Positions 4,749-63,293 of a DNA stretch of 64,000 nt are shown here, piece by piece. The stretch spans positions 1,244 to 65,243 of the forward strand of contig JAIYEG010000002.1 in assembly GCA_027487075.1 (NCBI GenBank), in the 5' to 3' direction. Both the position numbers and the translations under genes were made by a program. The notes below the pieces were generated by a model that saw only the letters and a program-made list of their open reading frames with translations, searched no databases and had not been told where the DNA came from. This DNA is from a bacterium (GTDB lineage Bacteria; Patescibacteriota; Minisyncoccia; Phycocordibacterales; CALRBL01). The first letter of the stretch is position 1. The number at the start of each line of letters is the position of its first letter.

Positions 4749-6107
4749 ATGAATTTCACAAAAGCATATGTTATTGCCGTCGATATGGGATATGGTCATC
4801 AGCGTGCAGCGTATCCACTAAAAGATATTTCGACCACGCCTGAAAGTTGGAACATCGCTGATCCTTATATTATCTCTGCAAACAATTATCCTGGTATTCC
4901 AAAGAAAGATGTCAAAATGTGGAATAGTGGTCGTGGGGTGTATGAGTGGATCTCTCGTATGCGTGAAATGCCGTTCATCGGAGAGCGATTGTTTGCACTC
5001 ATGAATTATTTTCAGCGTATCGAGCATTTTTATCCCAAGCGCGATCTTTCCAAATCATCATCGCAGTTAGATTACTTATATTTTCTCATTAAAAAACGTG
5101 GACTTGGAAAGCATTTGGTGCATGAGCTCAATAAAAATCCGTTGCCGATGATCACCACCTTCTTCACCCCTGCATTTTCTGCTGAAGTACACGGGTATAA
5201 AGGTGAAATATATTGCTTGTGTACTGATACCGATATTTCTCGAGCGTGGGTACCACAACATCCTGAAAACAGCCGCATCATCTATCTTGCACCGAGTCAC
5301 CGTGTGCAAGAGCGACTTAAAGCATACGGGGTATCACCAGAAAAAATCATCACCACAGGTTTCCCGCTCCCGAAGGAGTTGGTAGCTCCCGACACTGACA
5401 AAGATACACTCCTCAGGTCAGTGGTGCTTCGTCGCATTATGCGTCTTGATCCTACCGGCACATTCCGTGAGAAGTTTAAAGATCAGATCAAGGCTTCGCT
5501 TGGCACTGAAGTGTATGGTTCTCCTGATGAGCCCGTATCAGTGGCATTTGCTATTGGAGGAGCGGCAGCGCAATACCAGATCGGTCTTGATGTGATCAAA
5601 TCACTCGCGCCTGATATTAAAAATGGAAAAGTAAAACTCAACCTCATTGCTGGTGTATCAAATAAGATTTATCGTATTTTTGAGCAGGCACTTAAGAAAG
5701 AAGGGCTCGATTTGTTCCGAGGTAAGGGTGTCGACATTATCTATCATCCACAGAAGATGGATTACTTTAAGGAGTTTAATCATCTTTTGCTCGACACCGA
5801 TATTTTGTGGACAAAGCCGAGCGAGCTTTCGTTCTACGCAGGACTCGGGCTTCCTATCCTTATTGCACCAACACTTGGCTCACAAGAAGAATACAATGAA
5901 GAGTGGCTTCATGTGGTGAATGCGGGTATTGGACAGGGAAATCCAGTGTATACCCGCGAGTGGCTCTTTGATTGGCTTGAGTCGGGTATTCTTGCAAACC
6001 ATGCACTCAACGGATTTCTGAATGTATCAAAACGTGGTGCGTATCATATCGAGAGTGTGGTGATCAAGAACAAGCCAGAACAGATGCAGGATATTCATTT
6101 GGTATAA
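4749..6107 (+). CDS. GT28-family glycosyltransferase (MGDG-synthase/UgtP-like)
   Basis: It has the N-terminal 'VDMGYGHQRAA' G-loop and a C-terminal 'GSQEEYNEEW' motif resembling the UgtP/MurG 'GQEEENA' donor-binding region. Confidence 0.5.
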   Translation: MNFTKAYVIAVDMGYGHQRAAYPLKDISTTPESWNIADPYIISANNYPGIPKKDVKMWNSGRGVYEWISRMREMPFIGERLFALMNYFQRIEHFYPKRDLSKSSSQLDYLYFLIKKRGLGKHLVHELNKNPLPMITTFFTPAFSAEVHGYKGEIYCLCTDTDISRAWVPQHPENSRIIYLAPSHRVQERLKAYGVSPEKIITTGFPLPKELVAPDTDKDTLLRSVVLRRIMRLDPTGTFREKFKDQIKASLGTEVYGSPDEPVSVAFAIGGAAAQYQIGLDVIKSLAPDIKNGKVKLNLIAGVSNKIYRIFEQALKKEGLDLFRGKGVDIIYHPQKMDYFKEFNHLLLDTDILWTKPSELSFYAGLGLPILIAPTLGSQEEYNEEWLHVVNAGIGQGNPVYTREWLFDWLESGILANHALNGFLNVSKRGAYHIESVVIKNKPEQMQDIHLV

Positions 6108-19576: not shown

Positions 19577-20332
19577 ATGGAACGAAATATACACGCAGAC
19601 GTGATTGTATTTGATTTGGATAATACGCTGGCACGCAGTAAGACGATCATAGATGAAGAAATGGGTGGACTTCTTGCAGAGCTTCTCACCAAAAAGAAAG
19701 TGGCAGTGGTATCGGGTGGTAGTATGGCGCAGTTTAAGAAAGAGTTGCTCGATCCACTTCCTCCTCCATACGACAATTTACACTTATTCCCAACCGACGG
19801 TACCGCGTATTTTAAGTGGGACACCGCAACTCACGCATGGAAGCCTGTTTACCAAAAATTATTCAGCGAAGATGAAAAGGCAAAAATTCTCGCAGCATTT
19901 GCTGAGGTGTTGCCGGCTGCAGGATTCAGCGCAACAGGTGCAATTGGTAAAATCATCGAAGATCGTGGTTCGCAGATTACGTTCTCTGGACTTGGTCAGG
20001 ATGCGCCACTTGAACGCAAGCAGGTGTGGGATGCCGACAAACAGATTCGTGTAAAGATCGTGGAACTGCTCGCACCGAAACTTCCTGACTACGAACTCAT
20101 GATTGCGGGCACTACCTCAATCGACGTGACCGCAAAAGGCCTCGATAAGGCATATGCCATTCATAAGATCAGCGAGGAGCTTAATGTCGACGTGCCGAAG
20201 ATGGTGTTTATCGGCGATGCAATCTTCGAAGGGGGGAATGATTATCCAGTAGTATCAACAGGTGTGCCGTATATTAAGGTGACCGATCCTGAGGATACAA
20301 AACAGGTGATTCGTGAGATAATAAATATATGA
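19577..20332 (+). CDS. HAD-superfamily hydrolase (sugar-phosphatase-like, subfamily IIB-like)
   Basis: It has the N-terminal 'FDLDNTL' motif I and the C-terminal 'GDAIFEGGNDYP' motif IV. Confidence 0.7.
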   Translation: MERNIHADVIVFDLDNTLARSKTIIDEEMGGLLAELLTKKKVAVVSGGSMAQFKKELLDPLPPPYDNLHLFPTDGTAYFKWDTATHAWKPVYQKLFSEDEKAKILAAFAEVLPAAGFSATGAIGKIIEDRGSQITFSGLGQDAPLERKQVWDADKQIRVKIVELLAPKLPDYELMIAGTTSIDVTAKGLDKAYAIHKISEELNVDVPKMVFIGDAIFEGGNDYPVVSTGVPYIKVTDPEDTKQVIREIINI

Positions 20333-20928
20333 TACAACCATACGCAGCGCGCACACATGAAAAGATGAAAGAAGTTTTGATGGACCCAACCGCGCAAGGT
20401 CCTGAGATTCACTATTACATGATCCGCGGGGGAAGCGACAAGCGCAACGTGACGGTGTGGGAGACGGGAACCGTGGGTGGTGAATACATCAAAACCTATG
20501 GTCACTACCATATCGGCAACTTGTGCGAGATCTATTGGATCAAGCAAGGTGAGGGAATTATTCTGCTTCAAGAACGCGCAAGCACTGACCCCAATGAAAA
20601 GTCGGTGAAGAGTTTCAAGGCAGTGTATGCAAAAGCGGGAGATGAAGTGTTCATTCCTGCTGGTATCGGGCATCTCATGGTCAACACTGGCTCGACATGG
20701 CTCGTGACGGTCGATGATAGTCCGGTGAACTTCGAAGAAAAAGATCCGGTGTCGCTTCCTGGTCATGCTGATTACGAAAGCGTGCATAAGATGAAGGGGT
20801 TTGCATACTATGTGGTGAACAAGGATGGTGTGCCGACATTTGTGAAAAATGAAATGTATGATCAAGTGCCTGAGGTGGAGGTGCTGACCGCGGATGAATA
20901 TCGAGAGAAATATCCGCGGAAAGATTAA
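20329..20928 (+). CDS. pgiA: Cupin-type glucose-6-phosphate isomerase (archaeal-type cPGI)
   Basis: It has 'TYGHYH' and 'IPAGIGHLMVN' metal-binding His motifs equivalent to the Pyrococcus cPGI 'TKGHFH' and 'YWAHRTVN'. Its length is about 200 aa. Confidence 0.65.
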   Translation: MIQPYAARTHEKMKEVLMDPTAQGPEIHYYMIRGGSDKRNVTVWETGTVGGEYIKTYGHYHIGNLCEIYWIKQGEGIILLQERASTDPNEKSVKSFKAVYAKAGDEVFIPAGIGHLMVNTGSTWLVTVDDSPVNFEEKDPVSLPGHADYESVHKMKGFAYYVVNKDGVPTFVKNEMYDQVPEVEVLTADEYREKYPRKD

Positions 20929-20970
20929 ATGTAAATGGGAAGAAGAGTGCTGAATGTGTCTTTTTAGTGA

Positions 20971-21008
20971 TTTTTTTCTAAGGTCACAATTTGTGACCTT
21001 AGAAAAAA
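20971..21008. terminator. A 38-bp perfect palindrome (TTTTTTTCTAAGGTCACAATTTGTGACCTTAGAAAAAA) acting as a bidirectional terminator. This is copy 1 of 2.
   Basis: The 11-12-bp stem is flanked by T7 and A6 runs between convergent genes. It is identical to the element at 27731-27768 except for the loop orientation. Confidence 0.7.
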
Positions 21009-21077
21009 TAGTGAAATGAGTGTGTATAAAAAGAACCGCCTCCTGCACGAAGCAGGAGGCGGGGTTCGTTTGACTGT

Positions 21078-21377
21078 TCAATCGCCACCACGAAGTCGAC
21101 GAATGACGCGCACCATTTTGTCATCGGGATGCACGCCAGCACCAATCTTCGGATCAGGTTTAAGAACCGCATCGTTGTACCAACTGTGATTGAGGTACCG
21201 ACACAGAAGCCAGCAACCATCCTTTCGGACAATTGAATCTCTGTGATGCCTATACCAGTCGGCCGCGAGAGCCGTTTCAGGTGCATCTTGTACTTCATCG
21301 AGATCGACGAGGTACGTGTCGGCACCACCTTCCCAGAGGACGGTGCGTTCTATTAGGCGGTGAGCAATTTCGCTCAT
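21078..21377 (-). CDS. Hypothetical protein
   Basis: 99-aa ORF bounded by the palindromic terminator. No family recognised. Confidence 0.35.
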   Translation of the reverse strand: MSEIAHRLIERTVLWEGGADTYLVDLDEVQDAPETALAADWYRHHRDSIVRKDGCWLLCRYLNHSWYNDAVLKPDPKIGAGVHPDDKMVRVIRRLRGGD

Positions 21378-21523: not shown

Positions 21524-22804
21524 CTAAAGCACGTCTTTTATCTCCCACATCTTCATACTATTACTCCCTTTGATGAGTACTGCCGAGTTTCGGATGCTCG
21601 AAGCGAATGGTGAACCGAGAAAAGCTGCTCGGTCAGGAAATGCAGCATAACGCTTCACGGATTCGTGGGCTTTGGTGAATGCGGGGCCGATGAGAACGAC
21701 ATTAGTGAATCCATAGAAAGAAATGTCGTTGAGAATGTTTGCATGTTCTTTTTCTTCGTACGCGCCGAGTTCCTTCATGTCGCCAAGGATAAGCCACTTT
21801 GGTTTTGTGGTGGTGTAGCGAGAAAATGATTCGATAACAGCGTGCATGCTCGAAGGGTTGGCATTGTATGCATCGAGAATGATGTCATTGCCTTTTGAGG
21901 TGCTGATGATCTGGCTGCGCATGTTGGTCGGCACGTAGTTTCGGAGTGCTTTGTTAATGGTCACGGTCGGCACTTTGAAATGCTTGCCGATTGCATATGC
22001 CGTGCGCATGTTTTCCTTATTGTAGTCGCCGAAGAGGTTTGGATTCTCGGGAACTACCTCCTGGCCGTAGCGGATAGTGACGGCACTGCACCCTGGGTCG
22101 ATGGAATACAACAGAGAGGTAAGAGATGGGTCGGTTTCATTGATGAACACGATCGCCATATGATCGCGGAGGTATTCATAGAGTTCACCATTTGCTATGG
22201 CAACATTTTCTTTTGAGCCGAAGCCTTCGAGGTGGTCGCTGCCGTTGTTGGTGATGACGCCATGTGTTGGTGCTACGATTTCGCAAAGTGCCGCAGTTTC
22301 TTTGAGGTGGTTGGCGCCAATTTCGATGACGGCAATCTCGGTGCTTTTTTTGATGCGCAGGAGCGTGAGTGGTACGCCGATATGATTGTTGTGATTGTCT
22401 TCGGTCTTCACGATGAGATACTTTTCGGAGAGGACCGCAGCGGTGAGCTCTTTGGTGGTGGTTTTGCCGTTTGATCCACAAATAGCGATCACGGGCATGG
22501 AATATTGCATGCGATGGTGGTGCGCGAGTGTCTGGAGTGCCGTGAGTGCGTCGTGAGTGGCACCTTCGTGCTCGAAGTAGATGATGCGATCTGCGTTCTT
22601 TTCAAAGCGCGGGTCAGCCTTGAGTGAGAGGTCGTCGACTACTGCCGCAGCAGCGCCTTTGTCGAGTGCCTCGAATGCAAACTGATTGCCATCAAAGCTC
22701 TCGCCCTTGAGAGCAAAAAACAGGGAATTGCGGGCGATCTTGCGGGTATCGGTCGACACGCTGTCGCATTCTTTGAAGAGGTGATACAGCTCAGTGAGAT
22801 TCAT
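21524..22804 (-). CDS. murF: UDP-N-acetylmuramoyl-tripeptide--D-alanyl-D-alanine ligase
   Basis: It has the Mur ligase P-loop 'ICGSNGKTTTKE' and the typical MurF domain order and length. Confidence 0.85.
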   Translation of the reverse strand: MNLTELYHLFKECDSVSTDTRKIARNSLFFALKGESFDGNQFAFEALDKGAAAAVVDDLSLKADPRFEKNADRIIYFEHEGATHDALTALQTLAHHHRMQYSMPVIAICGSNGKTTTKELTAAVLSEKYLIVKTEDNHNNHIGVPLTLLRIKKSTEIAVIEIGANHLKETAALCEIVAPTHGVITNNGSDHLEGFGSKENVAIANGELYEYLRDHMAIVFINETDPSLTSLLYSIDPGCSAVTIRYGQEVVPENPNLFGDYNKENMRTAYAIGKHFKVPTVTINKALRNYVPTNMRSQIISTSKGNDIILDAYNANPSSMHAVIESFSRYTTTKPKWLILGDMKELGAYEEKEHANILNDISFYGFTNVVLIGPAFTKAHESVKRYAAFPDRAAFLGSPFASSIRNSAVLIKGSNSMKMWEIKDVL

Positions 22805-22867
22805 GTGAATATCGTAGCATATCTTTCTCGTTGATTATGTGAATAAATATTGTGGAACATTTGATGA

Positions 22868-23332
22868 GTGAGATGGGAGGATGGGGTGATGGAGGAATAT
22901 GATGTGTGGAATGAAGATAAGAAGCAACTTGCGAAAATAAGTAAGCGATTCATGTTCAAAGTGGGTGAAATCTGGTGGTGTTCTGTTGGCTTAAATATCG
23001 GAACTGAAGTGAGGGGAAAAGGTGATAAATTTCGTCGTCCGATTCTTATACTTAAGAAACTTTCGTATGATTCTTGTGTTGGATTGCCTTTGACTACTCA
23101 ACCAAAGAAAGGAAGTTGGTATCTAGAGGTGTGCATTCCTGAGGGAAGAAGGTGGATTATGCTTCACCAAATTAAAATGGTGCATGTTAAAAGATTTCAA
23201 AAGAAACTCTCACAAATTTCCCAAGAAGATTTCCAAAAGACAAAAGAAAAACTCGGGCAGTTGCTCGAGTTGTTAGATCATCACCCAGCCGTCGCTGGGA
23301 TCGATGGGATGGCTCCCCAAAATGTGCCGTAA
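22868..23332 (+). CDS. PemK/MazF-fold (Kid-like) endoribonuclease-toxin homologue, orphan
   Basis: 'VGEIWWCSVGLNIGTEVRG...RRPILIL...GLPLTT' follows the MazF/Kid pattern GEIW..G.E..G.RP.LVL..TT. No antitoxin-sized ORF lies upstream. Confidence 0.55.
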   Translation: MRWEDGVMEEYDVWNEDKKQLAKISKRFMFKVGEIWWCSVGLNIGTEVRGKGDKFRRPILILKKLSYDSCVGLPLTTQPKKGSWYLEVCIPEGRRWIMLHQIKMVHVKRFQKKLSQISQEDFQKTKEKLGQLLELLDHHPAVAGIDGMAPQNVP

Positions 23333-23371
23333 CGTTATTTCAGCACGATTAAACTATATACCAAATCAAAC

Positions 23372-25087
23372 ATGAGTCAATGCGTAAATAAATCAAAACT
23401 AATATATAATCCTCCCATGACCCAAAAGGAAGCATTCGACATACTGAAGACTGGAGTAAACGTGTATATCACGGGTGCTGCTGGCGCAGGCAAGACGCAC
23501 CTTCTCAATATGTATATCGACTATCTGCGCGAGCACGACGTGGCCTTCGGCATCACCGCATCCACGGGTATCGCAGCAACACACATGGGTGGAGTGACAA
23601 TTCACTCATGGACAGGGCTTGGGGTGCGAAGCGAGCTCACACCCTATGATCTCGAGTCACTTCAAGAAAAACAATATCTGTACCGGCGTATCGAAAAAGC
23701 GAGTGTGCTTATTATCGACGAGGTATCGATGCTCCACCATTTTCGTCTCGATATGATTGATCAGGTACTCCGCGCATTCAAGCGTGTGGATGCACCCTTT
23801 GGTGGGATGCAGGTGGTGCTGTGTGGAGACTTTTTCCAGCTCCCGCCAGTGTCGCGCATGGGTGAACCTGATCCAAAATTTATCTACCATTCTCGTGCAT
23901 GGAAAGAAGGGCAGTTTAAGGTCTGCTACCTCGAAGAGCAGTTTCGTCACAATGATGATGTGGCGGTGCGTGTACTCAACGATATCCGCAATGATCGCGT
24001 CGATCGTGGCACTATGCAACATATCGAACATCGCTTCACGACTGAGCGTTCAGAGATGTCGCCGCTTCGTTTGTACACACACAATGTTGATGTCGACAAG
24101 GTGAATGACCAAGAGCTCTACCGACTTCGTGGTGACATGATGACCTACGACATGGAAACACGTGGTAATGCAACACTCGTCGATATATTGAAGAAGAGCT
24201 GTTTGGCTCCAGAATTTTTGAAGCTCAAGGTGGGAGCGAAGGTAATGTTCGTGAAGAATAATTTTGAGGCAGGATATGCAAACGGTACGCTTGGTATCGT
24301 CAAAGAGCTCGAGGGCTTTAGTGGTGGTCCCGTAGTGGAGACGTACGGAGGCAAAACCATTGAAGTACCTGTCGAGAGTTGGGTCATCGAAGAAGATGGC
24401 AAAATAAAAGCAGAGCTCAAGCAATATCCACTTCGTTTGGCATGGGCAATCACCATCCACAAGAGTCAGGGAATGAGTTTGGATATGGTGGAGGTGGATT
24501 TGTCACGCTCCTTCGAAAAGGGTATGGGATATGTGGCGCTGTCGCGTGTGCGTTCGTGGGATGGGCTGTCGATTCTTGGTTTCAACGATGAAGCACTTGC
24601 GGTGGATGGTGAGGTACTTGCGTATGATAAGCAACTACGAGCGCAATCGAATAAAGCAAAGGCACAACTCTACGAAATGAAGGAAAGTAGCACACTCGCC
24701 AAAAAGCAGGAAACATTCTTGAAGCGTATTTCGCCAAAAGCGAATCCAAAGCAGAAAGTGGTAAAGCCCTCGACATTCCAAAAGACGCTCGCACTCCTTC
24801 AGGAGCAGGTATCACTTGCTCAGATTGCAAAACATCGTGGTGTCACTGAAGAGACGGTACTCTCGCATATCGAAACATTGCTCGAAGAAGGACAGATTAC
24901 GAAAGGCGCGATTGAATATTTGATTAAAGGATTTTCAAAAAAGAAATATGATGAGATTGCCGCCCTTCTTAAGAAATTTCACTCGGAAAATGATGATTGG
25001 CGCCTAGCGCCGGTACGTGCTGCGCTTGGTGACCGTCCGAGCTATCGAGATATTCAGCTGGTGAGGTTGTTTGTGAGGAAGTGGTAG
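23372..25087 (+). CDS. Pif1/RecD-family ATP-dependent DNA helicase with a C-terminal HTH domain
   Basis: It has Walker A 'GAAGAGKT', helicase motifs ('IDEVSMLHH', 'VVLCGDFFQLPPV') and a C-terminal HTH ('IAKHRGVTEETVLSHIETLLEEG'). Confidence 0.8.
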   Translation: MSQCVNKSKLIYNPPMTQKEAFDILKTGVNVYITGAAGAGKTHLLNMYIDYLREHDVAFGITASTGIAATHMGGVTIHSWTGLGVRSELTPYDLESLQEKQYLYRRIEKASVLIIDEVSMLHHFRLDMIDQVLRAFKRVDAPFGGMQVVLCGDFFQLPPVSRMGEPDPKFIYHSRAWKEGQFKVCYLEEQFRHNDDVAVRVLNDIRNDRVDRGTMQHIEHRFTTERSEMSPLRLYTHNVDVDKVNDQELYRLRGDMMTYDMETRGNATLVDILKKSCLAPEFLKLKVGAKVMFVKNNFEAGYANGTLGIVKELEGFSGGPVVETYGGKTIEVPVESWVIEEDGKIKAELKQYPLRLAWAITIHKSQGMSLDMVEVDLSRSFEKGMGYVALSRVRSWDGLSILGFNDEALAVDGEVLAYDKQLRAQSNKAKAQLYEMKESSTLAKKQETFLKRISPKANPKQKVVKPSTFQKTLALLQEQVSLAQIAKHRGVTEETVLSHIETLLEEGQITKGAIEYLIKGFSKKKYDEIAALLKKFHSENDDWRLAPVRAALGDRPSYRDIQLVRLFVRKW

Positions 25088-25218
25088 TAGGGTGAAAATA
25101 GAGAAATAAAAAACCGCCTGCCCCACAATCAGTTACGATGGGGACAGACGGCATATGCTTGTGGGGTCATTGACCTACCTCAAGCTTTGTTAAGGGTTTG
25201 GTTTGCGAAGTTATCGTG

Positions 25219-25578
25219 TCACTGGCGTGAGCTGGTGCGGTCCGATGCCGCAGGCTCGCGCACGTGCGCGATCATCACAGTGTTGCTTTCGCCGAGGTCG
25301 AAGCCGAAGCTCCCGACCCGATACCAGCAGTCAGAGACCGCCGGAGTGTCTTCCTTGAGACGCTCAGTAGCGAAACACTCACACGGTGGTGGAGGTTTCC
25401 CAGTAGAACGAATGAAGGAAAATGTGTCTGGAGGGGGCATAGGTCCGAGAGTGAGTACATCATGGTACTCAAATTCTGGAACAAGCACCTCTCCGAAATT
25501 GGCATCACATTCCTCGGGAATGACGATAACAAGAGATGGTCCGAGGGCCATCAAAACCGCGAAACGAAGAGAACTCAT
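25219..25578 (-). CDS. Small predicted secreted Cys/Pro-containing protein, hypothetical
   Basis: 119 aa with a signal-peptide-like N-terminus. It lies in a locally GC-rich segment and has a terminator hairpin downstream on the minus strand at about 25110-25150. A competing antisense ORF 25187..25597(+) exists. Confidence 0.3.
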   Translation of the reverse strand: MSSLRFAVLMALGPSLVIVIPEECDANFGEVLVPEFEYHDVLTLGPMPPPDTFSFIRSTGKPPPPCECFATERLKEDTPAVSDCWYRVGSFGFDLGESNTVMIAHVREPAASDRTSSRQ

Positions 25579-25655
25579 TGCTTGCGTACGAATGTAGCAC
25601 GATTATGAAAAATGTAAATTTTGTGGTGTGAAGACGAGAAGCATATACTTACGGT

Positions 25656-26060
25656 ATGAATGAAGAAGATATCAAGAAAAAATTGACCTCAGAAGAATAT
25701 ACGGTGCTCCGACAAAAAGGCACCGAAGCTCCTTTTTCTGGAAAGTATGTGAATAGCAAAGAAAAGGGTGTGTATGTGTGTAAGGTGTGCGGACAAAAAT
25801 TATTTTCATCTGATACTAAGTTTGATTCTGGTACCGGATGGCCGAGCTTCTATGATGCGGTGCCTGGAAGTGTCGAGTTTGTACACGATGATACGCATGG
25901 GATGCGACGTACGGAAGTAGTGTGTTCAAAGTGTAAGTCACATCTTGGGCATGTGTTTGATGATGGATTTGGAACACCGACGAATAAACGCGATTGCATG
26001 AACTCGGTGTGTTTGGATTTGTTGCCTGAGTCTGAAGAAAATAAAAACGCCAATAATTAA
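25656..26060 (+). CDS. msrB: Peptide-methionine (R)-S-oxide reductase
   Basis: It has two CxxC zinc motifs and the catalytic 'RxCxN'-region ('GHVFDDG') typical of SelR/MsrB. Confidence 0.85.
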   Translation: MNEEDIKKKLTSEEYTVLRQKGTEAPFSGKYVNSKEKGVYVCKVCGQKLFSSDTKFDSGTGWPSFYDAVPGSVEFVHDDTHGMRRTEVVCSKCKSHLGHVFDDGFGTPTNKRDCMNSVCLDLLPESEENKNANN

Positions 26061-26063
26061 CTA

Positions 26064-26333
26064 ATGTCTAAAACATTTTCTGAAAAAGTGCGAGATGTGG
26101 TGTCAAAGATTCCGAAAGGAAGCGTGATGACCTATAAAGAAGTTGCTAAGAAAGCGGGAAATGAAAAAGCTGCTCGTGCAGTGGGTACGGTGATGCGCAA
26201 AAACTATGACCTTGCCGTATTTTGTCATCGGGTCATCAAAAGTGATGGAACGGTGGGGAATTATAATCGCGGAGGTGCGAAGGTGAAACAAAAGATGCTT
26301 ATTAAAGAAGGAGTGTTAATTGAGCGTATATGA
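26064..26333 (+). CDS. MGMT-family (Ogt C-terminal domain-only) DNA-binding protein
   Basis: 89 aa. It has 'AARAVGTVMRKN' and the active-site-like 'FCHRVI' (the PCHRV variant). Confidence 0.6.
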   Translation: MSKTFSEKVRDVVSKIPKGSVMTYKEVAKKAGNEKAARAVGTVMRKNYDLAVFCHRVIKSDGTVGNYNRGGAKVKQKMLIKEGVLIERI

Positions 26334-26686
26334 ATAACCATGAACAACAGCGTCAGATCAATAGAGAAGAAGTGGTAAGGGAAATTCAGGAATCACATGG
26401 TGATTCAGAATATTTTGATGATGCTCTTAGAGAGTTGATTAGTGCGTGGGCTGAACAAGAATATTATAAACTAGGTTCAGATGCTGAAAGTGTGGTTGGT
26501 CAAATAGGAATTATAATTAGTGAGGCAGAGTTGTTTGCTGATGCTGGTCATCCAAGGATTGCAATAAGTTGCTTGTGGAATGCTTTGCAATGGGCTGAAC
26601 AGTATGATGATGAAAATTTGGAGCGCAGTATAAAGAGTAAAATGCTAGATATTGATCCTTCGTTGGAGTTCGAACCTAAGCAATAA
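26330..26686 (+). CDS. Hypothetical acidic protein
   Basis: 118-aa ORF wedged between the MGMT-like gene and msrA with 4-bp overlaps. Confidence 0.4.
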   Translation: MNNHEQQRQINREEVVREIQESHGDSEYFDDALRELISAWAEQEYYKLGSDAESVVGQIGIIISEAELFADAGHPRIAISCLWNALQWAEQYDDENLERSIKSKMLDIDPSLEFEPKQ

Positions 26687-26691
26687 CCACT

Positions 26692-27234
26692 ATGACATCA
26701 CCAACACAAACAGCAATATTCGCCGGAGGATGCTTTTGGTGTACAGAGGCACTTCTCAAAGGTCTTAAGGGAGTGCTTTCGGCAGAGCCCGGCTATGTCG
26801 GCGGTTCAACACCGAAGCCGACATATGAGCAAGTATGCACGGGAAACACCGGTCACGCTGAAGCAGTGCGTATCAACTTTGATCCGAGTGTCATCAGCTA
26901 TGGTCAGCTCCTGTCGGTGTTCTTTAATACTCACGACCCGACAACGCTCAATCGCCAAGGAAATGATGTGGGTACGCAGTATCGTTCAGCGATTTTCTAC
27001 ACAAGTGATGAGCAAAAAGAAGAAGCTGAGAAACTCATCACTGAACTTAACTCAAGTGGTGCGTATGACAAGCCAGTGGTGACCGAAGTGACACCAGCAA
27101 CTGAGTTTTATGTTGCTGAAACCTACCACCACGACTACTATGAGCGAAACAAAGACAAGGCATATTGTCAGATTATTATCGAACCTAAATTAGAAAAACT
27201 TCAAAAGACTTACCATGAACTACTGGCTCGTTAA
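26692..27234 (+). CDS. msrA: Peptide-methionine (S)-S-oxide reductase
   Basis: It has the N-terminal 'GGCFWC' catalytic motif. Confidence 0.85.
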   Translation: MTSPTQTAIFAGGCFWCTEALLKGLKGVLSAEPGYVGGSTPKPTYEQVCTGNTGHAEAVRINFDPSVISYGQLLSVFFNTHDPTTLNRQGNDVGTQYRSAIFYTSDEQKEEAEKLITELNSSGAYDKPVVTEVTPATEFYVAETYHHDYYERNKDKAYCQIIIEPKLEKLQKTYHELLAR

Positions 27235-27673
27235 AAGTGAAGGGGATTGCTACTCGATTGCAGATTTGAAACGCGACAAACGCACGGCGTGGACGGGAAT
27301 TCGCAACTATCAAGCGCGCAACTTTATGAGAGACGGCATGAAGAAAGGAGATCTCGTGCTTTTTTATCATTCACAATCTGAACCGTCAGGTATCTACGGT
27401 CTTGCAAAAGTAGTGAGTGAGCCGCATCCCGACGAGACAGCGTTCGATAAAAAAGATGAGCACTATGATCCGAAATCAAAACGTGAAGCCCCAACATGGA
27501 TGTGTGTCGATCTGCAGTACGTAAAGACATACAAAGAGCCACTCAGTTTGGCGGATATAAAGCGTGACACAAAGCTCGAAGGTATGTGGGTGACACGAAA
27601 AGGAGATCGTCTGTCGGTCCAACCGGTGTCGGAGAAACATTTTAAGTGGATTGAGAAGTTGTTGAGTAAATAA
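27215..27673 (+). CDS. EVE-domain (PUA-like) protein
   Basis: 'NYWLVKSEGDCYSIADL...ARNFMRDGMKKGDLVLFYHS' matches the EVE/Thy28 fold. Confidence 0.7.
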   Translation: MNYWLVKSEGDCYSIADLKRDKRTAWTGIRNYQARNFMRDGMKKGDLVLFYHSQSEPSGIYGLAKVVSEPHPDETAFDKKDEHYDPKSKREAPTWMCVDLQYVKTYKEPLSLADIKRDTKLEGMWVTRKGDRLSVQPVSEKHFKWIEKLLSK

Positions 27674-27730
27674 AAAGCCGCCGATGGTAGGTCGACTGTG
27701 AGTTCTTCCGGTAGAGTATTACAAATCGTG

Positions 27731-27768
27731 TTTTTTTCTAAGGTCACAAATTGTGACCTTAGAAAAAA
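27731..27768. terminator. A 38-bp perfect palindrome (TTTTTTTCTAAGGTCACAAATTGTGACCTTAGAAAAAA), copy 2 of 2, acting as a bidirectional terminator
   Basis: It lies between the convergent EVE and nuclease genes. It is the reverse-complement version of the 20971 element. Confidence 0.7.
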
Positions 27769-27771
27769 GCA

Positions 27772-28383
27772 TCATTCACACACTCCCTCCGCCCACAACC
27801 CTCGCTTTTCGCGCTGTGCTTCTTTCTCCGCCGCCTTAAACTCAGCCTGATACTTGTAAGGGATCTTATTGTAGGTGTATTCGTGCGCGTATCCTTGCTC
27901 GATGAGCACTTTGTTGAAGTTTGTGCCGTCTTCAAGGATGATGTAGCCAAGGTCGCGACCGTACTTGTCTGGGCCCGGATTGCGCTCATCGCTCTCTATG
28001 CGCACGTGCTTTCCGGCGAGCATCATTTTGGTGAATTCAGACGCTTCTTTACCAAAACACTGCACGGGTTTTCGTGGGTCTACCGTCTCTGGTGTATCAA
28101 CACCGATCATGCGCACGGTGACGGGCTTGCAATCACGACTTACCGTGATGGTGTCGCCATCACTCACCTCGACGACTTCGAGTGAGCTTGTTGCGCTTGT
28201 AGTCGATGCCGCACCTTCTTCGATGATGCAGGTATCAAAATACATCGTCTTCTTGATGTTCTTGTTGAATGGACCAAACACCTCTTTCTGAAGTGATCCA
28301 TCGGGATCAAAAAAGACCACGAGTAATACAAAAAGACAAGCGAGGAGGGTAGAAATAAGCTTCTTTGCGTGCTTTTGGGGCAT
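27772..28383 (-). CDS. Membrane-anchored thermonuclease (SNase-like)
   Basis: It has an N-terminal TM helix and the SNase motifs 'VSDGDTI', 'VRMIGVDTPE' and 'DKYGRDLGYI'. Confidence 0.75.
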   Translation of the reverse strand: MPQKHAKKLISTLLACLFVLLVVFFDPDGSLQKEVFGPFNKNIKKTMYFDTCIIEEGAASTTSATSSLEVVEVSDGDTITVSRDCKPVTVRMIGVDTPETVDPRKPVQCFGKEASEFTKMMLAGKHVRIESDERNPGPDKYGRDLGYIILEDGTNFNKVLIEQGYAHEYTYNKIPYKYQAEFKAAEKEAQREKRGLWAEGVCE

Positions 28384-28443
28384 CTTGCTTATGATACGAC
28401 AAACCGCGTATAATGGACACATTAGTAATAAGATCGAAATAAA

Positions 28444-40604: not shown

Positions 40605-40645
40605 AAAAAAAGCCTCCGTCGCGTTTGCGACGGAGGTCTTTGTTG
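40605..40645 (-). terminator. Rho-independent terminator for the 40662-41021 gene
   Basis: CCTCCGTCG-CGTTTG-CGACGGAGG with an A7 run on plus, which is a T7 run on minus. Confidence 0.65.
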
Positions 40646-43823: not shown

Positions 43824-43862
43824 AAACAAGCGCCGGCGGAGTGAATCCGCCGGCGCTTTTTT
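43824..43862. terminator. Bidirectional rho-independent terminator
   Basis: GCGCCGGCGGA-GTGAA-TCCGCCGGCGC flanked by A-rich and T6 runs. Confidence 0.7.
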
Positions 43863-44614: not shown

Positions 44615-46777
44615 ATGCCAAAAGCTTCAAAAGCATCTCACAACAATGATTCGCCATTCACCATCAGCACGGCATTTGCTCCAGCAGGTGATCAGCCAAA
44701 GGCAATCGCTAGTCTTGTTGATGGACTCAAGAAGGGGTTGCGACACCAGACGCTTCACGGTGTAACGGGGTCCGGAAAGACCTACACCGCCTCACAGGTC
44801 ATTCAACAACACGGCAAGCCAACACTTGTGATCGCGCACAACAAAACGCTCGCAGCGCAGCTCGCTCAAGAGTATCGAGAATTTTTCCCGAACAATGCGG
44901 TGCATTACTTCGTGTCCTACTATGACTACTATCAGCCGGAGGCATACATGCCGCACACTGATACCTATATCGAGAAAGAAGCACAGATCAATGCCGAGAT
45001 CGATCGTCTTCGTCATGCATCTACCCAAGCACTCCTTACCCGCAAAGATGTGATCATTGTTGCGTCAGTGTCATGTATATACGGTTTGGGAAGCCCAGAA
45101 GAATATGAGAAGTCTCACCTCAAGATCGCAAAGGGTGCAACGATGGATCGTGCTGAACTCATTCGACGTCTTATTCATATTTATTTCGATCGTACGAATG
45201 CAGACATGATGCCGGGAAAGTTTCGTGCGCTCGGCAACTCAATGGAAATCATGCCGGTGAACGAACGTGTCATCTATCGCATCGACTTTGGTATCGAAGG
45301 TGCGACGCCAATCATCAAAAGCATTATCAAGATCGACGAAATTACGCGCGCCATCATCGGTGAGATAGACGCATTCTTTTTGTTTCCCGCAAAGCACTTC
45401 GTGACCCCTGAAGATGAGCGTGAACGAGCGATTAAGGATATCAAACACGAACTCGATGAGCGTCTTGAGGTACTCAAGGCAGAAGGAAAACTTCTTGAAG
45501 CAGATCGCTTGAAGCGCCGCACCACCTATGACCTCGCGCTTATCAAAGAAGTGGGATACTGCAACGGTATCGAAAACTATTCACGACATTTTTCTGGTAA
45601 GGCACCTGGCGAAGCGCCGGATACGTTGCTTTCATATTTCCCACACAAGAAAGATGAGAAGGGAAATCTAGTTCCCGATTTCCTTACTATCATCGACGAG
45701 TCGCATGTGACGGTGCCACAGCTCAATGGAATGTATGCTGGTGATCAGTCGCGCAAGCAGAGTTTGGTGGATTTCGGTTTTCGTTTGCCTTCTGCTCGTG
45801 ACAACCGCCCGCTCAAGTTCCCTGAGTTTCTCGAACGTACCGGTCAGATTGTGTACACCACGGCAACACCCGGAAAATACGAACTTGAACACTCACAAAA
45901 TATCGCAGAGCAGGTCATTCGTCCGACCGGTCTTCTTGATCCTGAGGTTGAAGTGCGACCGATTATTTCGATGGCGCCCTTCGAAGGGCGCCATTACAAG
46001 GGTCAAATTTTCGACTTTATTGATGAAGCAGAGCGCACGATTGCAAAGGGATTTCGCGTGATCGCAACGACGCTCACCAAGAAGATGGCAGAGGACTTGA
46101 GCGAATTTCTGAAAGAGCGAAAGATCAAAGCTGCGTACATCCACAGCGACATCGAAACACTGGAACGTATCCAGATCCTCACTGAGCTTCGCAAGGGTAC
46201 CTACGACATCATTGTGGGAGTGAACTTGCTTCGTGAAGGACTTGATCTTCCTGAGGTGGCGCTCATCGGTATTCTCGATGCTGATAAGGAAGGCTTTTTG
46301 CGCTCGGAGTCGGCACTCATTCAGACGATTGGTCGTGCCGCGCGAAACTCTGAGGGAAAAGTGATTTTGTATGCCGAACATATAACCGGCTCGATGGAAC
46401 GCGCACTGAATGAGACAAATCGCCGTCGTACGCTGCAAATCGCATACAACAAAGAGCACGGCATCACACCAAAGACGATCATTAAGCGTATCAAGGATAT
46501 TACAGAAGACATCGAGAACGAACATCAGAAGACCATCAAGACACTCCTCACGATGGACGCTGAAGCATTTGCCAAAGATCCGAAGAAAGTGATTAAGATG
46601 AAAGAGCAAGAAATGCAGGAAGCGGTGAAGGAACTCGATTTCGAAACGGCAGCGTTGTTGCGAGATGAAATTAAAGCACTTATGGAGGGAACAGTGAAAG
46701 CAGAAAAGAAAGCTGCAAAAGCAAAGAAGGAGGCGAATAAAGGAATTCGTGGAAAGAAACAGGATTTGCGCGGATGA
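44615..46777 (+). CDS. uvrB: Excinuclease ABC subunit B
   Basis: 720 aa. It has 'GVTGSGKT', a beta-hairpin region, helicase motifs and the C-terminal UVR domain ('DFETAALLRDEI'). Confidence 0.9.
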   Translation: MPKASKASHNNDSPFTISTAFAPAGDQPKAIASLVDGLKKGLRHQTLHGVTGSGKTYTASQVIQQHGKPTLVIAHNKTLAAQLAQEYREFFPNNAVHYFVSYYDYYQPEAYMPHTDTYIEKEAQINAEIDRLRHASTQALLTRKDVIIVASVSCIYGLGSPEEYEKSHLKIAKGATMDRAELIRRLIHIYFDRTNADMMPGKFRALGNSMEIMPVNERVIYRIDFGIEGATPIIKSIIKIDEITRAIIGEIDAFFLFPAKHFVTPEDERERAIKDIKHELDERLEVLKAEGKLLEADRLKRRTTYDLALIKEVGYCNGIENYSRHFSGKAPGEAPDTLLSYFPHKKDEKGNLVPDFLTIIDESHVTVPQLNGMYAGDQSRKQSLVDFGFRLPSARDNRPLKFPEFLERTGQIVYTTATPGKYELEHSQNIAEQVIRPTGLLDPEVEVRPIISMAPFEGRHYKGQIFDFIDEAERTIAKGFRVIATTLTKKMAEDLSEFLKERKIKAAYIHSDIETLERIQILTELRKGTYDIIVGVNLLREGLDLPEVALIGILDADKEGFLRSESALIQTIGRAARNSEGKVILYAEHITGSMERALNETNRRRTLQIAYNKEHGITPKTIIKRIKDITEDIENEHQKTIKTLLTMDAEAFAKDPKKVIKMKEQEMQEAVKELDFETAALLRDEIKALMEGTVKAEKKAAKAKKEANKGIRGKKQDLRG

Positions 46778-51660: not shown

Positions 51661-51692
51661 AAAAAAGCGGCGACCCGAGGTGGGTCGCCGCT
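51661..51692 (-). terminator. Rho-independent terminator with stem GCGGCGACCC/GGGTCGCCGC
   Basis: The hairpin lies immediately after the stop of the 51692-52156 gene, with an A6 run on plus. The same stem recurs at 55796. Confidence 0.6.
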
Positions 51693-54064: not shown

Positions 54065-54137
54065 GGGCCCCTAGCTCATCTGGTAGAGCGCCTCATTTGC
54101 ACTGAGGAGGTGAGCGGTTCGAGTCCGCTGGGGTCCA
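54065..54137 (+). tRNA. tRNA-Ala (anticodon UGC)
   Basis: It folds as a cloverleaf. The acceptor stem GGGCCCC/GGGGTCC carries the diagnostic G3:U70 pair. The anticodon stem-loop CCTCA-TTTGCAC-TGAGG gives anticodon TGC. The T-arm is GGTTCGAGTCC. CCA is not encoded. Confidence 0.85.
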
Positions 54138-55788: not shown

Positions 55789-55795
55789 AAACAGA

Positions 55796-55828
55796 GCGGC
55801 GACCCACCACGGGTCGCCGCTTTTCTTT
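55796..55828. terminator. Rho-independent terminator with stem GCGGCGACCC/GGGTCGCCGC, second copy
   Basis: It has the same 10-bp stem as 51667-51691 with a different loop (ACCAC). A T-run follows, and an A-rich run precedes it. Confidence 0.65.
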
Positions 55829-62192: not shown

Positions 62193-63293
62193 TTGTCTAA
62201 CATGAGAGACTTTATTGCCTATATCTACAAATACCTAGCAAAACCGGTGCTTTTTAAGTTTGATCCTGAAGACGTACACGATCGTATGGTGATGGTGGGC
62301 AAACTCTTGGGCAAGCTCACACCCGCTCGCTATATTACCAAAAAAATTTTTACCTATGAGGATTCTATTCTTGCTCAAGATGTGTGCGGGCTTCATTTCT
62401 CGAACCCCATTGGACTCTCGGCAGGATTCGATAAGAATGCTGAGCTTACGCAGATCATGTCCGCTATCGGATTCGCCTTCGAGGAGGTGGGTTCAGTAAC
62501 AGGAAAGCTCTGTGCAGGTAATCCCAAACCTCGTTTGTGGCGAGTGCCAGAGCAAAAGGGAATCCGCGTGTACTACGGACTCAAAAATGATGGGTGTGAG
62601 GTGATTGCAGATCGTTTGGCACACACACGTCGCATTGAAAAAGATTTCCAGCTCGGCATCAGTGTTGCAATGACTAACTGCGAAGCAAATCTCGATATCG
62701 ACAATGCGGTGCGAGACTATCAGAAGGCATTTCGCACTATGGAACCTCATGCTGACTATCTCACTATCAATATCAGCTGTCCGAATACGCTCGGTGGCCA
62801 GCCGTTTACTGATCCATTAAAGCTTGAGAAACTGCTTTCTGCTCTTGAAGAGGATGGCGCCCTTCGAAGGGCGCCATCCAAGCCGATCTTCATAAAAATG
62901 TCACCCGATATGTCGATGGAGCAGGTAGATGCAGTGCTTGCGGTACTGCAGGTGCATCGCGTGCATGGTATTATATGTACTAACCTCACTAAGAAGAAGG
63001 AGGTGAAAGGTGGATATAGTGGAAAGATGGTGCAGGAGCAGTCAGATAAGCTTCTTGCCCATATCTACCGAAGTTGTGGTTCGCGTTTTGTGTTGGTGGG
63101 ATGTGGAGGGGTGTTTAGTGCCGAAGATGCCTATCGAAAGATTCGTCTTGGTGCAACGCTCATTCAGATGATCACCGGCATGATATACGAGGGACCTCAG
63201 GTGGTAGGTACTATCAATCGCGATCTCGCCACACTTCTTCGACGAGACGGTTTTACCCACATTAGCCAAGCCATAGGCATCGATAATCGATAA
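62193..63293 (+). CDS. pyrD: Dihydroorotate dehydrogenase (quinone), class 2
   Basis: It has an N-terminal membrane-association helix, then 'NPIGLSAGFDKN' and 'CGGVFSAEDAYRKIRLGATLIQMITGMIYEGP'. Confidence 0.9.
   Translation: MSNMRDFIAYIYKYLAKPVLFKFDPEDVHDRMVMVGKLLGKLTPARYITKKIFTYEDSILAQDVCGLHFSNPIGLSAGFDKNAELTQIMSAIGFAFEEVGSVTGKLCAGNPKPRLWRVPEQKGIRVYYGLKNDGCEVIADRLAHTRRIEKDFQLGISVAMTNCEANLDIDNAVRDYQKAFRTMEPHADYLTINISCPNTLGGQPFTDPLKLEKLLSALEEDGALRRAPSKPIFIKMSPDMSMEQVDAVLAVLQVHRVHGIICTNLTKKKEVKGGYSGKMVQEQSDKLLAHIYRSCGSRFVLVGCGGVFSAEDAYRKIRLGATLIQMITGMIYEGPQVVGTINRDLATLLRRDGFTHISQAIGIDNR

Follow-up and report, generated by a model that had tools for sequence, protein, structure and literature searches.

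Short palindromic DNA sequences dispersed in prokaryotic genomes have been described in several forms, and three of these are closest to the element considered here, a 37-bp perfect palindrome that is present twice in a 64-kb stretch of DNA (contig JAIYEG010000002.1; the whole stretch is referred to below as the window) from a bacterium of the Patescibacteriota, and which appears to belong to a palindrome family associated with the genes for ORF6N-domain proteins. The repetitive extragenic palindromic (REP) sequences and bacterial interspersed mosaic elements (BIMEs), together with the REP-associated tyrosine transposases (RAYTs; the combinations are known as REPtrons), are similar to this family in that they are short dispersed extragenic palindromes, often located at the 3' ends of genes, and are tied to one gene family that is itself flanked by the repeats; in both cases a conserved sub-motif is combined with a stem that is otherwise variable, and neither of them are classical terminators. 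However, REPs are imperfect, species-specific palindromes with an HUH/Y1 transposase-like partner (TnpA-REP), whereas the ORF6N-associated palindrome is perfect, has an odd centre and a core that is identical across phyla, and is present inside the coding sequence of the partner gene, whose product is a winged-helix-like predicted DNA binder with a coiled coil and no recognisable catalytic domain. REPs also occur in many copies per genome, whereas the palindrome here is known from two copies in 64 kb, and no RAYT gene was seen among the open reading frames (ORFs) of the window that were examined, not every ORF having been scanned. The Rickettsia palindromic elements (RPEs) resemble the ORF6N-associated palindrome in that palindromic DNA is accommodated in frame where a protein has a surface loop or a disordered one, that the intragenic copy number varies (one to three RSQxVT repeats in some ORF6N genes) and that non-coding copies are also found. 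However, RPEs are 100-150 bp long, lineage-restricted and present in many unrelated genes, whereas the ORF6N palindrome is 21-47 bp long and occurs at one position of what is essentially a single gene family, with conservation across phyla. Lastly, the IS200/IS605 elements and the gene-less palindrome-associated transposable elements (PATEs) share with the ORF6N system the presence of hairpins at, or close to, the two ends of single small genes, a lack of target-site duplications, hairpins at the DNA level and gene-less hairpin derivatives. In contrast to IS200/IS605, the ORF6N system is without a Y1/HUH transposase, its left and right hairpins are not distinct, the hairpin is also found within the coding sequence, and no conserved target tetranucleotide, which is a feature of IS200/IS605, was seen at the palindrome copies. 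The palindrome thus meets neither the REP/RAYT nor the RPE definition, because it has no HUH/Y1 enzyme, is perfect and identical across phyla, and occupies one fixed position in one gene family.

The explanation that we favour, and to which we assign a probability of about 0.55, is that the two sequences in the window are solo, non-coding, REP-like members of the ORF6N-associated DNA palindrome family, which have remained as relics or have arrived as insertions. The sequence is present twice, as the original prediction had noted, in the form of TTTTTTTCTAAGGTCACAATTTGTGACCTTAGAAAAAA at positions 20971-21008 and TTTTTTTCTAAGGTCACAAATTGTGACCTTAGAAAAAA at positions 27731-27768. Strict symmetry extends over 37 bp in each copy, viz. 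two arms of 18 nt and one central base, and the first T of each 38-mer lies outside it. The two copies are identical at 37/37 positions as reverse complements and at 37/38 positions as direct copies, the central T/A alone differing. No other palindrome with arms longer than 14 nt is present in the 64-kb window, nor is there in it any other CAAWTTG-centred palindrome with arms longer than 4 nt, and the 25-bp core occurred 0 times in 100 dinucleotide-preserving shuffles. As single-stranded DNA, the first copy is predicted to form a hairpin of -16.4 kcal/mol (z = -9.7) and the second one of -17.9 kcal/mol. The possibility raised in the same prediction, that the flanking genes are a segmental duplication, was ruled out, since in BLAST comparisons of the +/-1.5 kb around the copies no similarity was seen outside the palindrome and the similarity between the two regions ends at 37-42 bp. 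Independent Logan assemblies from other sequencing runs were 100% (L121) and 99.98% (L308) identical to the window. The former carries copy 2 and its contig ends inside this copy, as a de Bruijn graph would break at a self-complementary repeat; as an independent assembly carries copy 2, the palindrome is not an assembly artefact. A search of Rfam 15 at the gathering threshold gave one match in the whole window, a tRNA at 54065-54137, and the palindromes were unmatched.

The suggestion that these sequences form part of a dispersed family of repeats, either REP-like or protein-binding, is supported by their occurrence elsewhere. The family core, AAGGTCACAA-W-TTGTGACCTT (i.e. GGTCACAA-W-TTGTGACC), has a constant CAAWTTG centre and outer arms that are variable yet self-complementary, and it is present at hundreds of bacterial and archaeal loci, where it is tied to ORF6N-domain genes. 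In the window, the 21-bp core is present without change, as AAGGTCACAAWTTGTGACCTT, in both copies, the central base being A or T. When a collection in which each prokaryotic species is represented by one genome was scanned with AAGGTCACAANTTGTGACCTT, this core was identified at at least 120 genome loci, compared with ~0.5 matches expected by chance. The phyla represented among the matches listed include the Bacteroidota, Planctomycetota, Verrucomicrobiota, Omnitrophota, Patescibacteria, Nitrospirota, Acidobacteriota, Pseudomonadota, Bacillota and Spirochaetota, in addition to the Methanosarcinales and Nanoarchaeota. Based upon a profile of the family, 88 of the 126 genome matches listed are inside ORF6N-like ORFs, and most of the listed matches are coding, in the context ...FQLTxEE..L-RSQ(I/F)VT-LK.GRGQH.KYLPYAFTEQG..., where the codons of the palindrome specify L-RSQ(I/F)VT-L. 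The host family is that of the ORF6N domain (Pfam PF10543, E about 1e-32 to 1e-35), and the palindrome lies within this domain at a fixed position, ~+240 nt from its start. A 29-bp version, TTCTAAGGTCACAANTTGTGACCTTAGAA, which contains four more bases of the window arm (TTCT..AGAA), was found at 87 metagenome loci, ~70 of them inside ORF6N genes. Overall, ~70-80% of the metagenome loci and of the genome loci among the matches listed are at this one position inside ORF6N-domain genes. In one Parcubacteria ORF6N gene (L106, encoding protein P0121), the residues D-F-F-L-R-S-Q are encoded by GAC TTT TTT CTA AGG TCA CAA, which corresponds to the full left arm of the window palindrome, TTTTTTCTAAGGTCACAA (T6CTAAGGTCACAA). 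The association is also seen in a complete conjugative plasmid of Legionella pneumophila (L309, NZ_CP048619.1), where the palindrome is present at 5292-5316 in a gene annotated in RefSeq as encoding an 'ORF6N domain-containing protein', with a second copy at 6006-6028, 18 nt past its stop codon. The protein encoded by this plasmid gene is 298 aa long and has a C-terminal HDRFLIID...GASLKDL domain, possibly PLD-like as judged by its motif; in BLAST searches the palindrome matched four places in this plasmid, and several other Legionella plasmids had two each.

The ORF6N family is very large, with at least 8000 relatives scored in one search. In PHROGs it is described as anti-repressor, under transcription regulation, and in PADLOC it matches the single-gene candidate defence system PDC-S05 (E = 3e-55). 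According to a preprint (10.1101/2024.09.26.614923), one PDC-S05 representative, described as having a RhuM domain, reduced the plating of T7 and T5 about 1000-fold in Escherichia coli. PDC-S05 has been reported to be protective in this species against T7, T5 and T4. The significance of the observations made here lies in the base-for-base retention of a 21-47-bp DNA palindrome, from the Bacteroidota to the Nanoarchaeota, in the coding sequence of a gene family for which a role in anti-phage defence has been put forward and, for one representative, tested. A functional palindrome would provide a concrete and testable handle on the action of the PDC-S05/ORF6N proteins; if it is selfish or mutationally self-maintaining, it would be a clean natural example of the 'locking' of a palindrome by interleaved codon constraints. 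The window copies would also represent a REP-like element in the Patescibacteria, a group whose repeat content is poorly known. Full-text literature searches for the sequence and for ORF6N yielded no description of the palindrome and incidental mentions of ORF6N, such absence being no proof of novelty; the ORF6N-linked palindrome family is previously undescribed, or at least unindexed. The closest ORF6N relatives are mostly on very short contigs of 1-3 kb, which fits genes that are multi-copy or strain-variable and break assemblies.

The symmetry of the palindrome is strictly Watson-Crick and it is a property of the DNA. In 75% of the genome matches listed, versus 1.6% expected, the arms continue for 3 bp or more past the pattern that was searched for, and in the 29-bp metagenome matches they are at least 2 bp longer in 44%, versus 6% expected. 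These extensions are unconserved but complementary (cttt/aaag, gttc/gaac, tctct/agaga), and the arm lengths in the family range from 10 to 23 nt among the matches listed, compared to 18 nt in both window copies. In a sample of ORF6N genes that is independent of the pattern, drawn from IMG/VR by means of two other peptide motifs, 30 of 37 distinct genes had a longest palindrome in the loop region that exceeded a synonymous-codon null derived from the codon usage of the gene itself, with a mean arm of 6.8 nt versus 3.6 nt under the null. When the centre was set by the profile column (34 sequences), positions 1-6 and 9-13 counted from it were complementary in 85-100% of the sequences, versus mostly <30% in slid controls. 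Compensatory pairs were observed at d=4 (A-T 26, C-G 6, G-C 2), d=10 (G-C 26, A-T 6) and d=11 (T-A 29, G-C 3, C-G 2), and at the protein level this covariation is reflected in residues that change together (R..T with K..I; V with A or G). The mismatch at which perfect pairing first broke was G.T 31 times and A.C 36 times, and past wobbles the pairing was not resumed; a structure in the sense transcript was ruled out, as there is no excess of G.U and the pairing stops at wobbles. Of 284 copies among the matches listed, 278 have A or T as the central base, and the central codon in the sense orientation specifies Ile in 39, Phe in 27, Leu in one and Val in none, although all four should be acceptable. 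As read from the codons, the frames of the two arms appear to be offset by one base, so that the wobble positions of AGG-TCA-CAA would pair with the second-codon positions of xTT-GTG-ACC, and the reverse. Given this offset and any process that keeps the symmetry, the constraints on the amino acids would freeze the whole DNA sequence, and the locking of the arms by such interleaved codon constraints would explain why the palindrome is identical base-for-base between proteins that are just ~60-70% identical. Alternative C-termini of the shufflon type were also considered and were ruled out, since the antisense ORFs through the palindrome are short.

The structure of protein P0121 was modelled by AlphaFold2 using a 40-sequence alignment (mean predicted local distance difference test score, pLDDT, of 74). 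In this model, a small alpha/beta winged-helix-like domain is followed by a long C-terminal coiled-coil helix, and residues 76-92, exactly the stretch that is coded by the palindrome, form an irregular loop of low pLDDT. Judged by this model, the palindrome-encoded peptide looks structurally dispensable. In some ORF6N genes the loop contains 2-3 tandem palindrome-coded RSQxVT repeats, e.g. LRSQIVTLNEKDIVLRSQNVILNKKSSNSRSQFVILK in L006. A search of the PDB by sequence with the ORF6N protein gave no match, and Foldseek comparison of P0121 with the PDB gave weak, non-significant matches to the Ski/Dachshund DNA-binding domain and to MarR/MerR regulators.

Palindromes of this family are also located outside the genes. 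Those upstream, with the CAAWTTG centre, are 0-350 nt from ORF6N genes, typically 40-250 nt before the start and often in twos or threes, and those downstream are 12-270 nt past the genes. One ORF6N gene (L047) is bracketed by identical 27-bp copies, and truncated ORF6N genes frequently end at the palindrome. Another locus (L034, 1228-1510) has a non-coding array of six differing perfect or near-perfect CAAWTTG palindromes, with a 51-bp period, between an ORF6N stop codon and a convergent topA gene. Eighteen copies among the matches listed are solo, with no ORF6N gene in the <=8 kb available per locus. These include two tandem copies between the convergent genes der and proS in a GC-rich planctomycete (L020) and a copy in a member of the Parcubacteria (L057), and their intergenic settings are co-directional, convergent or, rarely, divergent. 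Information regarding the turnover of the copies is provided by two Clostridium metagenome-assembled genomes (L010 and L029) with ~94% identity across 6.4 kb, which were compared at 6720-6760 in L010 and 2540-2660 in L029. Before the ORF6N gene, at orthologous positions, the palindrome is ATGCGGTTCCA-TTT-TGGAACCGCAT in one of them and CTTGAGGTCACAA-T-TTGTGACCTCAA in the other, which is a symmetric replacement by another member of the family and not a point mutation. Additionally, L029 contains a further 89 bp that hold another palindrome, and the sole difference between the internal copies is a central T versus A (Phe versus Ile), as is the case for the window copies. It follows that copies are gained, replaced and flipped on short time scales.

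These observations suggest that the ORF6N-domain genes, whose products are phage anti-repressor-like and candidate PDC-S05 defence proteins, would be the home of the family, and that the family may persist and spread by DNA processes dependent upon hairpins or cruciforms. One candidate for such a process is intrastrand template switching, by which arms would be perfected and extended; template switching at quasipalindromes is an established mutational mechanism that would have this effect without selection. Gene conversion or replacement between copies, and recombination between copies, are other candidates. The window copies would then be insertions or relics of such events, situated in slots for accessory genes at convergent gene ends, and a possible route to them is recombination between flanking copies that deletes an ORF6N cassette and leaves one palindrome behind, like a solo long terminal repeat. 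In their present location the copies are probably neutral; any action would be that of a hairpin or roadblock element at most, without canonical termination.

A number of observations weigh against this explanation. No ORF6N gene is present within the 64-kb window. A profile from 63 ORF6N ORFs, run with filters off against the six-frame ORFs of >=25 aa, detected no ORF6N gene or remnant in the window, its sole match in the six-frame translation being the 11 residues encoded by the palindrome itself, and a decayed ORF6N gene was thereby ruled out. Copies 1 and 2 share all 18 arm positions, including the T6/A6 extension, which is found in full at no other listed locus, and a hypothetical palindrome-directed process would be required to trim two relics independently to precisely the palindrome. 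No consistent target-site duplications were found in 36 solo or flanking copies (direct repeats of 0-3 nt, which is the chance level), and classical transposition was ruled out for lack of them. No presence/absence polymorphism of a solo copy was found between near-identical genomes, and no partner enzyme is enriched beside the ORF6N genes, where 150 neighbours fall into 152 Pfam families and are unrelated housekeeping and accessory genes. Moreover, the genome and metagenome samples were picked by means of the DNA pattern itself, and the proportions derived from them are biased toward the exact core. Lastly, in the phage contigs of IMG/VR the identical 21-mer is mostly the stem of an ordinary terminator with the order A-run, stem, T-run; the bare sequence is therefore not diagnostic of membership in the family. 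A cassette could not be delimited from ORF6N genes in different contexts, as homology stops at the coding region and flanking palindromes are not universal. In the case of copy 1, the hexamer TAGTGA is present directly at both ends of the 38-bp sequence (20965-20970 and 21009-21014) and resembles a 6-bp target-site duplication; nothing like it was seen at copy 2 or at 34 other solo or flanking copies, and it is probably due to chance.

The use of the 21-mer in phage contigs without an ORF6N context is also the starting point of the least probable of the alternatives that we have considered, in which the window palindrome has no relation to the ORF6N genes and is an ordinary AT-rich hairpin of single origin that was then copied locally to another site. 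Hairpin stems can indeed recur in one genome, as is shown by a pair of terminators in the window that share AGCGGCGACCC. However, the same left arm is carried by the Parcubacteria ORF6N gene described above; the W centre, the perfect odd symmetry and the extension of the arms are hallmarks of the family; and the 18 other solo copies among the matches listed are in diverse genomes. We consider this alternative highly unlikely. Regarding the phage sequences, in six IMG/VR contigs (L213, L214, L217, L220, L221 and L225) the 21-bp core forms the canonical terminator stem (..aaggtat-core-atattttttt), and a 22-23-nt near-match with one mismatch is present in records of the phages P1, P7 and SJ46 (H11-H17), at an unannotated position in the P1-family phages, and in three E. 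coli plasmids (H8-H10).

The main rival to the relic or insertion reading, which is possible but unlikely, is that the window copies are binding sites, decoys or roadblocks for a dimeric ORF6N-type protein whose gene would be located in another part of the genome or on an invading phage or plasmid; the intragenic copy would then be an internal operator and the flanking copies autoregulatory operators. A winged-helix-like domain with a long coiled coil, as in the model of P0121, would suit a dimer that is bound to a two-fold symmetric site, and the regulators named above are its best, though weak, fold matches; the anti-repressor label in PHROGs, the clustering of palindromes before the starts of ORF6N genes, the strictly Watson-Crick symmetry, the fact that the central 13 bp (TCACAAWTTGTGA) are the most conserved part, and the presence of the same rare variant in the internal and upstream copies of one locus (L131) are all consistent with it. 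However, the fold matches are not significant and the binding to DNA is a prediction from the model, no ORF6N gene is present in the window, and the window copies are located between convergent 3' ends rather than at promoters. In addition, the perfect symmetry extends to arms of 18-23 nt of unconserved sequence, well past a typical operator; the arrays mix units with different stems; and in the 94%-identical Clostridium genomes near-identical ORF6N proteins are found with upstream half-sites that differ (GCGGTTCCA versus GAGGTCACAA). The lac O2 and gal OI operators provide the nearest comparison, in that palindromic sites are present both upstream of and inside a coding region and could be bridged by one multimeric regulator. 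In these systems, however, it is a structural gene of the operon under control that contains the internal operator, rather than the sequence for the regulator's own DNA-binding domain, and the operators are imperfect and ~20 bp long, whereas the ORF6N palindrome is a putative site as deduced from sequence. The palindromes of the window fail the defining features of intrinsic terminators, of transposons or miniature inverted-repeat transposable elements (target-site duplications) and of promoter operators (position).

It is also conceivable, although we consider it doubtful, that the family constitutes a cross-phyla system in which the ORF6N protein recognises, regulates or mobilises the hairpin- or cruciform-forming palindrome present in the disordered loop of its own gene, so that the solo hairpins in the window would be its dispersed cis-acting sites or footprints on host chromosomes, the ultra-small genomes of Patescibacteria among them. 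Such a system would follow the logic of REP and RAYT without an HUH enzyme, and the wobble positions of each arm would be locked by the second-codon positions of the other. The reading of the window copies as relics or insertions and their reading as operators are not mutually exclusive.

The original prediction described both copies as bidirectional terminators, and this claim is unsupported. Runs of T and A are present on each side of the stem as was stated, but their order is opposite to that in a terminator. An intrinsic terminator requires a U-tract 3' of the stem, whereas here the T-run is 5' and the A-run 3' of the stem on both strands, the order being reversed on the second strand too because the element is palindromic, and the stem is followed on each strand by A6-A7 and then by non-T sequence. 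Folding predictions for both RNA and DNA join the T-run to the A-run, giving a single hairpin of 17-20 bp that is not followed by any U-rich sequence. The G+C content is ~42% in the 12-bp core stem and 28% in the full 18-bp stem, whereas the terminator-shaped hairpins of the window (e.g. 21036-21062, 40613-40636, 43828-43858, 51666-51692 and 55795-55821) have stems of 8-12 bp, mostly of G-C pairs, with the polarity A-run, stem, T-run. A scan of the 17-32 kb region with a terminator consensus gave 20 terminator-like sites, and the palindrome copies were not among them. Hence, as with Rho-independent bidirectional terminators, the copies are stable hairpins between convergent genes with flanking A and T runs, but they differ from these in their reversed polarity and AT-rich stem, and an intrinsic terminator was ruled out on both of these grounds. 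The results remove a plausible mis-annotation and provide a caution for the calling of terminators from palindromes that are flanked by A and T runs. Among the window's own terminators, those at 51666-51692 and 55795-55821 have the same 11-bp stem (AGCGGCGACCC/GGGTCGCCGCT) with the loops GAGGT and ACCAC, respectively, and are thus another recurring hairpin stem.

A softened form of the terminator reading is that the copies act in RNA, where they would terminate transcription in both directions in spite of lacking a U-tract, or would stabilise the 3' ends of the convergent transcripts or block exonucleases there. Each copy closely follows stop codons in a convergent gene pair; as RNA, the hairpins are highly stable (z of -5 to -9 for the intergenic regions); and either copy may be transcribed into a 3' untranslated region, copy 1 being between the stop codon of the + strand gene and a canonical terminator, and copy 2 between the stop codon of the staphylococcal-nuclease-domain (SNase) gene and a weak terminator. 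Additionally, the identical stem is used in canonical terminators in phage contigs, and the solo copies elsewhere are mostly downstream of some gene. However, we regard this form as improbable as well, in view of the reversed polarity, with no U-tract after the stem on either strand, the use by this organism of canonical GC-rich terminators of the correct polarity, the lack of G.U tolerance in the family, the presence of the palindrome also in the middle of coding sequences and upstream of genes, and the existence in relatives of the same gene junction without any palindrome, in one of which (L312) the junction is just 24 bp.

The features surrounding the two copies are listed in Table 1. The original prediction that both are between convergent stop codons is borne out, the distances to the four stop codons being 3-69 nt. 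Copy 1 is 42 nt past the stop codon on its left and 69 nt before that on its right, in an intergenic region of 149 bp, and the corresponding distances for copy 2 are 57 nt and 3 nt, in a region of 98 bp. The terminator next to copy 1 is a strong one, which serves the 99-aa gene and possibly also the + strand, though more weakly. The window has a G+C content of ~46%, and the named homologues of the EVE protein are from Patescibacteria, including metagenome-assembled genomes of Paceibacterota, Parcubacteria and Nomurabacteria, which places the source of the window among the uncultured CPR bacteria.

Table 1. Coordinates of the palindrome copies and of neighbouring features in the window.
Feature	Coordinates	Strand	Remarks
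Palindrome copy 1	20971..21008	no strand	centre T at 20990; perfect symmetry 20972-21008
Palindrome copy 2	27731..27768	no strand	centre A at 27750; perfect symmetry 27732-27768
Cupin-type glucose-6-phosphate-isomerase-like gene	20329..20928	+	Pfam PF06560, E = 1e-17; 3' end toward copy 1
Canonical GC-rich intrinsic terminator	21036..21062	-	11-bp stem with 9 G-C pairs, then TTCTTTTTAT; 27 nt from copy 1
99-aa ORF	21078..21377	-	no family match; convergent on copy 1
PemK/MazF toxin gene	22868-23332		
PIF1/RecD-like helicase with HTH_40	23372-25087		matches PADLOC PDC-S68/RecD-like models
EVE (PUA-like) domain gene	27215..27673	+	Pfam PF01878, E = 3e-56; 3' end toward copy 2
Weak terminator-like hairpin	27680..27696	-	TTTTTAT tail; downstream of SNase gene and copy 2
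Staphylococcal-nuclease-domain (SNase) gene	27772..28422	-	Pfam PF00565; PADLOC C3a212 'SNc+LTD', E = 3e-38

The junction that contains copy 2 is syntenic in relatives with 76-85% identity of the EVE protein, where the order PIF1-MsrB-...-EVE is followed by a slot and then by convergent SNase-DUF7282. This slot is an empty 24-bp spacer in L312, it is 98 bp long and holds the palindrome in the window, and in L310, L311, L122/L123 and L124 it is occupied by an unrelated ORF, 88-150 aa in length, the slot of L311 being described from its gene table. No palindrome is present in L122, L123 and L124 (scan of the whole locus) or in L310 and L312 (reading of the junction), and the sole other carrier of copy 2 among the relatives is the same-species contig L121. 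As the palindrome is missing from the relatives that were read at the sequence level, copy 2 is a lineage-specific acquisition in a variable accessory slot and not an ancestral site, and a conserved local regulatory site at the EVE/SNase junction was ruled out by the palindrome-free relatives L122-L124, L310 and L312 and by the gene content of the slot in L310-L312.

The genes located between the two copies encode a Mur-ligase-family (MurT-like) protein, PemK/MazF, a PIF1-type helicase with HTH_40, MsrB, an MGMT-like DNA-binding protein, MsrA and the EVE protein, and the region 21524-28422, which consists of this interval and its right-hand neighbour, is rich in accessory and defence-like genes. 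The bracketing of this 6.76-kb segment by identical palindromes has a further possible explanation, viz. that the copies are crossover sites of a site-specific recombinase, or substrates for homologous recombination, by which the segment is inverted or excised. The central T versus A is as expected after inversion through the palindrome; the segment carries accessory or defence-like genes (PemK/MazF and the PIF1/RecD-like helicase with its PADLOC matches); and elsewhere ORF6N genes are bracketed by identical palindromes, as in L047, or, when truncated, often break exactly at the palindrome. However, the T/A difference at the centre has a 50% chance expectation, no inverted arrangement was seen in the relatives, no recombinase gene was noted among the ORFs of the window that were examined, and the order and orientation of PIF1-MsrB-...-EVE, followed by the convergent SNase gene, are retained across the position of copy 2 in the palindrome-free relatives. 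We therefore hold this explanation to be very improbable, and, given that synteny continues past copy 2, the 6.76-kb interval does not in itself constitute a cassette.

Lastly, the window contains a second, unrelated perfect palindrome, which is GC-rich (ATGGCGCCCTTCGAAGGGCGCCAT) and is present at 45971-45994 and at 62852-62879 (where it is 28 bp long), both copies being intragenic and in different frames. The copy in uvrB is within an 11-aa in-frame insertion, IISMAPFEGRHY, relative to the UvrB protein of Bacillus caldotenax, and that in the gene for a class-2 dihydroorotate dehydrogenase replaces a loop of equal length (EDGALRRAPS) and was confirmed in the independent assembly L308. By analogy with the Rickettsia elements, this pair looks like an RPE-like insertion of palindromic DNA into coding loops.

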